A stretch of 63,837 bases of DNA, counting the filler, from Dugesia japonica (taxonomy: Eukaryota): NCBI GenBank assembly GCA_001938525.1. It is 5 parts of 5 records of this genome, joined end to end, with 100 filler letters (N's around TTAATTAATTAA, not from the genome) between each part and the next. Parts side by side here need not be neighbours in the genome. Positions count along the whole stretch, not along the records: positions 37,863 to 55,447 come from MQRL01619908.1; 4 more parts are not named here. One strand, given 5' to 3'. Shown in pieces: positions 47,633-48,031 of this stretch. The notes below the pieces were generated by a model, which did not search any database, was not told where the DNA came from, and saw only the letters and a list, made by a program, of their open reading frames with translations. The translations under genes and the position numbers were made by a program. Within the stretch, counting starts at the first letter, position 1. Every line of letters starts with the position of its first letter.

Positions 47633-48031
47633 TTTAGCTTCAATAAACTTTTTCCATCCCCCGTGCTGTTTTATTAATGGCACTATTTTGTCCTGCATTA
47701 GATCCACTATTGGTAGTTTACTGAGAATGAAGTTTTTTGACAGCTTACTTCTAGCGATTGATAGATGCGTTTGATTAATTAGATGTGCTATAGATACTAC
47801 TATTCCTCCCTTTGTTGGCTGATTTTGTAATAATTCATCCATTACTCCTTCTAAATTATCTCTTGTACCATGACTGGTAACTTTAGTTGCAGGGAATTTC
47901 TTAATAGCTGCTTCTATTTTCTTGGCCAGTGGTCTGAGATTATCTGATAGTTGAAATTTCCCAATCCATATTTTTAATTTAGGATATAACATTAGCAGTA
48001 ACTGCCGTATTACCACTTCGGTTGGCATATA
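47633..48031 (-). other. Bcl-2-like domain within the polyprotein
   Basis: BH3-like LRPLAKKIE, BH1-like LEGVMDELLQNQPTKGGIVVSIAH and BH2-like KIVPLIKQHGGWKKFIE, in correct order and spacing. Confidence 0.7.

Follow-up and report, generated by a model that had tools for sequence, protein, structure and literature searches.

A Bcl-2-like domain upstream of a predicted Env signal peptide in a decayed, probably Burro-type retroelement of Dugesia japonica

Introduction

The closest described system to the element reported here is Burro/GYPSM1 of Schmidtea mediterranea, for which section 7 of PMC6431247 gives a 4,873-aa ORF and a Gag with three CCHC knuckles. The order set out in that section is Gag, SUMO-like, BCL2, in-frame Env, PR, dUTPase, RT, RH, IN: a Ubi2/SUMO-like motif precedes BCL-2, Env homology that matches mononegavirus fusion proteins lies in frame between BCL2 and PR, and a dUTPase-like motif occupies the PR/RT interval. 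Burro is also described there as carrying other apoptosis and ubiquitin modules, BIR for example, and the positions of MATH, BIR and ankyrin vary between Burro elements. PMC6431247 attributes the BCL2-like motif to Grohme 2018, includes Jurka 2007 among its sources for Burro1-4/GYPSM1, records decaying Burro fragments in Dugesia japonica, and regards an apoptosis role of Burro modules as an open question. Elsewhere, a passage of PMC8532177 reports repression of BURRO1 and BURRO4 by the PIWI protein SMEDWI-2, and Burro is merely mentioned in the relevant passages of PMC11410931, PMC13309565 and PMC10175614.

A second group consists of GAG-ENV-POL elements of HSV/gB type, described in PMC13524379 from Nematoda, Bryozoa and Platyhelminthes. 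Its S. mediterranea members, Smed_errantivirus_1-6, resemble the element described here in placing Env between Gag and Pol and in their length of 14.5-18 kb. The Env proteins of Smed_errantivirus_1 and _5 are 36% identical in that source, the main text of which contains 0 occurrences of 'bcl' or 'burro'.

Cellular Bcl-2 and Bcl-xL and the viral Bcl-2 proteins (A179L, adenovirus E1B-19K, poxvirus PF06227, M11L) share with the present domain the order BH3-BH1-BH2, GGW, an uncharged central helix and a hydrophobic segment downstream of BH2. The present domain differs from them in its sub-cut-off Pfam score, in its altered NWGR and BH3 Gly-Asp, in its position internal to a polyprotein, and in having 46 residues past BH2 a predicted cleavable signal rather than a terminal tail anchor. 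Such a placement recalls the flaviviruses and hepatitis C virus, in which signal peptidase cuts behind the internal envelope signal and leaves it attached to the cytosolic protein upstream; that protein is the capsid, from which a second cleavage removes the anchor. Here a Bcl-2-like domain would take the capsid's place, and a second cleavage is not known.

Results

Within the 63,837-nucleotide window, the whole stretch of DNA that was analysed, a gypsy element was recovered over about 17.6 kb (37863..55447); this extent and every feature of the element given below lie on the minus strand. The element ends on either side in a scaffold gap, and the two gaps (37763-37862 and 55448-55547) are built alike: N run, TTAATTAATTAA, N run. 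No LTR pair was recovered, and the gaps are probably an assembly artefact that hides the LTRs. The GC content of the element is about 0.39, as against 0.19-0.36 outside.

A broken Gag (53168..54560) comprises a retrotrans_gag region (PF03732, E=0.0073) and three CCHC zinc knuckles of the form CX2CX4HX4C (PF00098, E=5e-11). A single frame from 50569 to 43523, with 2,349 codons, 16 in-frame stops and no frameshift, contains a ubiquitin-like segment, the Bcl-2-like domain, a hydrophobic segment, Env, the Env transmembrane segment, two proteases and a dUTPase-like segment. The ubiquitin/SUMO-like segment (49400..49687) has a stop inside and matches PF22900 UCH_UBL1 below cut-off (E=0.015). Two retropepsin domains, each with a DTGA motif, lie at 44600..45100 (PF09668, E=2.5e-7) and 43934..44446 (PF00077, E=6.8e-6), and the dUTPase-like segment falls in the protease/RT interval at the approximate limits 43760..43980, again below cut-off (PF00692, E=0.009-0.015). 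Broken reverse transcriptase and RNase H (42432..43598; PF00078, PF17919 E=4e-39) are followed by the integrase core (40986..41918; PF00665, E=5.5e-13) and, in an accessory frame 3' of integrase, by a C3HC4 RING finger (40057..40242; PF13920, E=2.8e-16). Frameshifts in this copy lie upstream of 50569 and within the start of RT; we infer that a single ORF formerly joined Gag, the middle frame and Pol. The distance from Gag to integrase is about 4,520 codons, of which the interval between Gag and the Bcl-2-like domain, about 4.5 kb of coding sequence, is mostly without an assigned family.

By published domain order, the element is with high probability a Burro-type (Gag-Env-Pol) gypsy retroelement. 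Compared by description with Burro1-4/GYPSM1 as reported in PMC6431247, it shares the three-knuckle Gag, a candidate ubiquitin/SUMO-like segment, the BCL2-like segment, an in-frame mononegavirus-like Env, the dUTPase-like segment and RT-RH-IN; both belong to large families, and Gag-to-IN measures about 4,520 codons here versus 4,873-5,140 aa in Burro. It differs in having two tandem proteases and a downstream RING, which section 7 of PMC6431247 does not mention at those places. Burro elements exceed 30 kb with long LTRs, whereas 17.6 kb was recovered here with both ends in gaps. No Pfam match to MATH, BIR or ankyrin was obtained in the broken translations scanned, from an element whose ends are missing. 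The sequence-only reading had held that no Bcl-2 domain was known in LTR retroelements. This does not stand, as BCL2-like motifs together with an in-frame Env are already reported for Burro in section 7 of PMC6431247; the Bcl-2 cargo is not novel, because the same layout has been published for Burro/GYPSM1.

Several further features of the window were observed. The tandem retropepsins (43934-45100, minus strand) both read DTGA and are 27% identical to each other; they could be duplicates that divide the protease's roles between them, or parts of a single-chain dimer. The frame past integrase (40057-41052, minus strand) ends in the RING, its remainder lacking a Pfam match. C3HC4 RINGs of this type are found in IAP and MDM2 proteins, and the one at 40057-40242 is likely a ubiquitin ligase module. 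By eye, the segments 48740-48979, 50730-51002 and 52113-52367 (minus strand) appear ubiquitin-like with no supporting Pfam match; if real, they would form with the SUMO-like segment a run of ubiquitin-like domains in the interval from Gag to the Bcl-2-like domain. One of five candidate segments matched a ubiquitin-like Pfam family (PF22900, sub-cut-off). At the 3' end, a one-base frameshift at 39399, private to this copy, splits an accessory ORF of no known family (38928-40005, minus strand). Other LTR retroelement fragments (integrase, RT, zinc knuckle) occur at 5304-7526, 11735-12103, 15147-15629 and 20181-20675, decayed sequence at 56200-57400 resembles by eye a Polinton-type DNA polymerase, and degenerate tandem repeats at 58450-59357 form arrays whose units measure about 20, 41 and 61 bases.

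This copy is dead, its 2,349-codon frame being interrupted by 16 stops. Its family is large and diverged: 4.1 kb of the element was matched by 11,676, 8,751 and 8,985 contigs in three runs of organism A and by 2,610 in one run of organism B, where summed contig depth is no copy number, and the matching contigs covered all 30 bins, mostly at <95% identity. Six stops (48890-48892, 46055-46057, 49613-49615, 42432-42434, 41919-41921 and 40777-40779) were absent from 88-100% of sister-copy depth in the variant tables, so the family is open at those positions. The stop at 47465-47467 was not among the best 40 rows of each table. From stop density, private substitutions in this copy are estimated at about 4-6%.

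RNA reads aligned to the element numbered 3, 127 and 9 among 10.5, 13.6 and 11.6 million in three runs, with 3, 122 and 9 of these being partial fits; these runs share their species label with run X1, come without a positive control and may represent other strains or tissues. The counts suggest near silence of the element in RNA. Such low levels fit the repression of BURRO1 and BURRO4 by SMEDWI-2 stated in PMC8532177.

The Bcl-2-like domain lies inside an open stretch of 387 codons (48628-47468, minus strand) bounded by the stop at 47465-47467. No other open stretch in the frame is as long, and the stop comes directly after the hydrophobic segment, as would suit a domesticated host Bcl-2 gene in which termination at the end of the signal yields a true tail-anchored protein. 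At the stop density of this copy, however, a stop-free run of that length has a chance of 0.06 and is the longest of 17 stretches, so no special protection is indicated, and over 47246-48417 two runs gave an RNA depth of 0 and the third a depth of <0.5. We therefore consider domestication exceedingly improbable.

The domain itself (47633..48031) is supported by a PF00452 match, ESM Atlas and Foldseek rankings and helix analysis, all of them sub-threshold. A charged spacer without a Pfam match (48032..48628) lies 5' of the domain, and a linker (47516..47632), ending in a basic stretch that resembles a signal n-region, leads from it to the hydrophobic core of the Env signal; 46 residues separate the BH2 tryptophan from that core. 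The three peptides quoted when the domain was first proposed are present on the minus strand in the order BH3 (47912-47938), BH1 (47783-47860) and BH2 (47639-47689), and an uncharged alpha5-like helix covers 47756-47803.

NWGR in BH1 and Gly-Asp in BH3 are motifs of the Bcl-2 family, the groove residues at these positions bind BH3 helices, and alpha5 of Bcl-2 is an uncharged, hydrophobic central helix. In this decayed copy, the BH1-like segment reads TKGG at the NWGR position and the BH3 Gly-Asp is replaced by Ala-Lys; both segments depart from the family motifs, and the groove residues for BH3 helices are thus missing. The BH2 GGW is retained after an amphipathic helix, and the helix following TKGG has 0 charged residues among 16 and the top mean hydropathy of the seven helices. 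TKGG may reflect decay or a family trait. It is not readable as the latter, since about 12-15 private amino-acid changes (range 7-25, from stop density) are expected in the 133-aa domain.

Among Pfam families PF00452 ranked first, matching the domain over model positions 17-100 of 100 at E=0.011 and 16.7 bits, a score short of the gathering cut-off of 31.4 bits. Two of the 45 window translations scanned matched PF00452, both containing the domain, and the match was gone when the cut left out the BH2 end. In the ESM Atlas, the first match of a 148-aa query scored 0.88 with 193 shared features, and all ten of the best named matches fell in one family or clan (Bcl-2-type clusters). The recognition value of 1585 is low, and one third of shuffled proteins also yield ten concordant matches; on the tool's own scale the result is a lead and no more. 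Extending the query by the linker and signal peptide returned integrase-like clusters instead, with few shared features.

Two single-sequence AlphaFold models gave seven helices each, at pLDDT 49.9 and 43.5. Foldseek against the PDB listed Bcl-2/Bcl-xL in 44 of 44 rows for model 1 (E 0.09-0.54; 132-168 columns, 13-20% identity) and, for model 2, Bcl-2-family chains in each of rows 1-26 (E 1.5-4.1). Superposition on Bcl-2 chains was poor (TM-scores 0.18-0.31, rmsd 13-22 A), so the Foldseek signal reflects sequence and local structure rather than a matching fold, and, as Foldseek uses amino acids, it is not fully independent of Pfam. With the domain as query, phmmer against the PDB recovered no Bcl-2 chain, viral Foldseek and VIA-align showed no Bcl-2 among the matches listed, and searches for homologues of the domain retrieved none.

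The Bcl-2 family thus ranked first in Pfam and Foldseek, with each score short of its threshold; the models show seven helices and an uncharged central helix, and are too poor to confirm a Bcl-2 fold in three dimensions. On converging weak evidence, we regard the domain as probably a Bcl-2 homologue. The proposal that an LTR retroelement here carries a Bcl-2-like domain immediately before its Env signal peptide is probably right, with Pfam, Atlas and Foldseek each ranking Bcl-2 first below threshold. The label 'Bcl-2-like' is used rather than Bcl-2 family member because the domain falls below the Pfam cut-off and does not read NWGR.

Sub-threshold scores throughout, together with the low Atlas recognition value, the behaviour of shuffled proteins, the change of family when the signal peptide was included and the lack of Bcl-2 in the VIA-align and viral Foldseek matches listed, are what an unrelated helical domain with a chance resemblance to Bcl-2 might also produce. 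This reading is improbable, as Pfam, Atlas and Foldseek converge on one family across the whole domain, which moreover sits exactly at the BCL2 place published for Burro in PMC6431247.

Two further alternatives accept homology and concern function. The change of NWGR and BH3 Gly-Asp with BH2 GGW kept, the presence of PF06227 Poxv_Bcl-2-like on 23% of members of the first Atlas cluster, and the fusion of the domain between Gag and the Env signal would all suit a repurposed Bcl-2 fold. Some Bcl-2-fold proteins of poxviruses block immune signalling yet do not bind BH3 helices; the domain might act likewise, or serve as a spacer that tethers Gag to the Env membrane as a matrix substitute. The altered residues may, however, be private decay, given the number of changes expected, and the PDB rows were canonical Bcl-2/Bcl-xL, BAK and A179L, though these are abundant in the PDB. 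We consider repurposing unlikely, yet deserving of weight. Bax and Bak also have BH3, BH1 and BH2 segments and then a hydrophobic segment, an arrangement like that seen here, and BAK chains took ranks 4 and 12 with Foldseek model 2; a Bax/Bak-like domain might cause late death or membrane permeabilisation that releases particles. Subfamilies are not resolved by these scores, a parasite of germline or stem cells profits little from host-cell death, and Burro elements carry BIR inhibitor-of-apoptosis domains according to PMC6431247. We judge a pro-death role very unlikely.

The Env ectodomain (45779..47464) is a Monjiviricetes/HSV-gB-type fusion glycoprotein (PF24664, E=1.4e-89 with stops read as X), interrupted by stops at 46454, 46310, 46055 and 45779. 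Over 46811-47359, 78 of 183 residues (about 43%) are identical to Smed_errantivirus_5 in a gap-free hand count on one of six Smed_errantivirus rows, chosen by eye as closest, with a 13-residue identical run at 46970-47008. At this identity, the element belongs to a family distinct from that of Smed_errantivirus_5 (PMC13524379); the present copy is broken. The Env similarity, together with the AT-rich flanks, makes a planarian host likely.

The two most hydrophobic segments of the 2,349-codon frame flank the Env ectodomain. The top 15-mer (45722-45766, KD 2.48) is the Env transmembrane segment, which with the cytoplasmic tail occupies 45245..45778; the runner-up (47456-47500, KD 2.05) lies just before Env and covers the core of a predicted internal signal peptide (47465..47524, from hydropathy and the PF24664 start). 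This core (47477-47515) is 13 residues long. The ectodomain begins with the codon directly after the stop at 47465-47467, the frame being unchanged, and the PF24664 match opens on the first residue past that stop at profile position 21, so that the hydrophobic segment would lie at the viral glycoprotein's own signal-peptide place.

Discussion

The overall best explanation, to which we give an even chance, is that of a dead Burro-type copy whose domain, in the active ancestor, would have faced the cytosol from the ER membrane and would likely have damped host cell death. An Env within a polyprotein needs an internal signal. By the topology predicted here, Gag through the signal peptide would be cytosolic, the Env ectodomain would enter the ER lumen, and Pol would again be cytosolic past the Env transmembrane segment. 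Cleavage by signal peptidase where Env begins would free Env and leave the signal on the upstream product, where it would tether the Bcl-2-like domain and any attached Gag precursor to the Env-bearing membrane. Held there, the domain may bind host BH3 or Bax/Bak-type proteins and so delay apoptosis during particle production. Stops farther upstream, together with the one that ends the signal, keep this copy from making such a polyprotein.

The individual steps differ in strength. An anti-death function of the domain may be as probable as its absence. The earlier proposal that the retained signal mimics a tail anchor fits the predicted topology, and the anchor site would be the ER, not the mitochondrial outer membrane. 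Internal signals like this 13-residue core are often removed by signal peptide peptidase, and we put persistence of the anchor for long enough to matter at slightly under an even chance. Regardless of apoptosis, the anchor would have a role in budding, because the whole Gag precursor would be anchored unless a protease cuts upstream.

Generation of an anchored apoptosis regulator from the Env signal is the sole part of this account with novelty; the signal-anchor idea was not found in the literature searched. In full, it gives the Env signal of Gag-Env-Pol retroelements a double duty: to send Env to the ER, and then to anchor the captured Bcl-2 domain, standing in for the tail anchor that the domain has lost and keeping the Gag precursor on Env-bearing membrane. 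We advance this combined reading tentatively and well short of an even chance. If true, a membrane-bound apoptosis regulator would be made 1:1 with the structural proteins of the element. The locus adds a further diverged, decayed family to the published Bcl-2-before-Env arrangement, and the signal-anchor idea offers a specific mechanism by which a retrotransposon may control host cell death and couple its capsid to its envelope.
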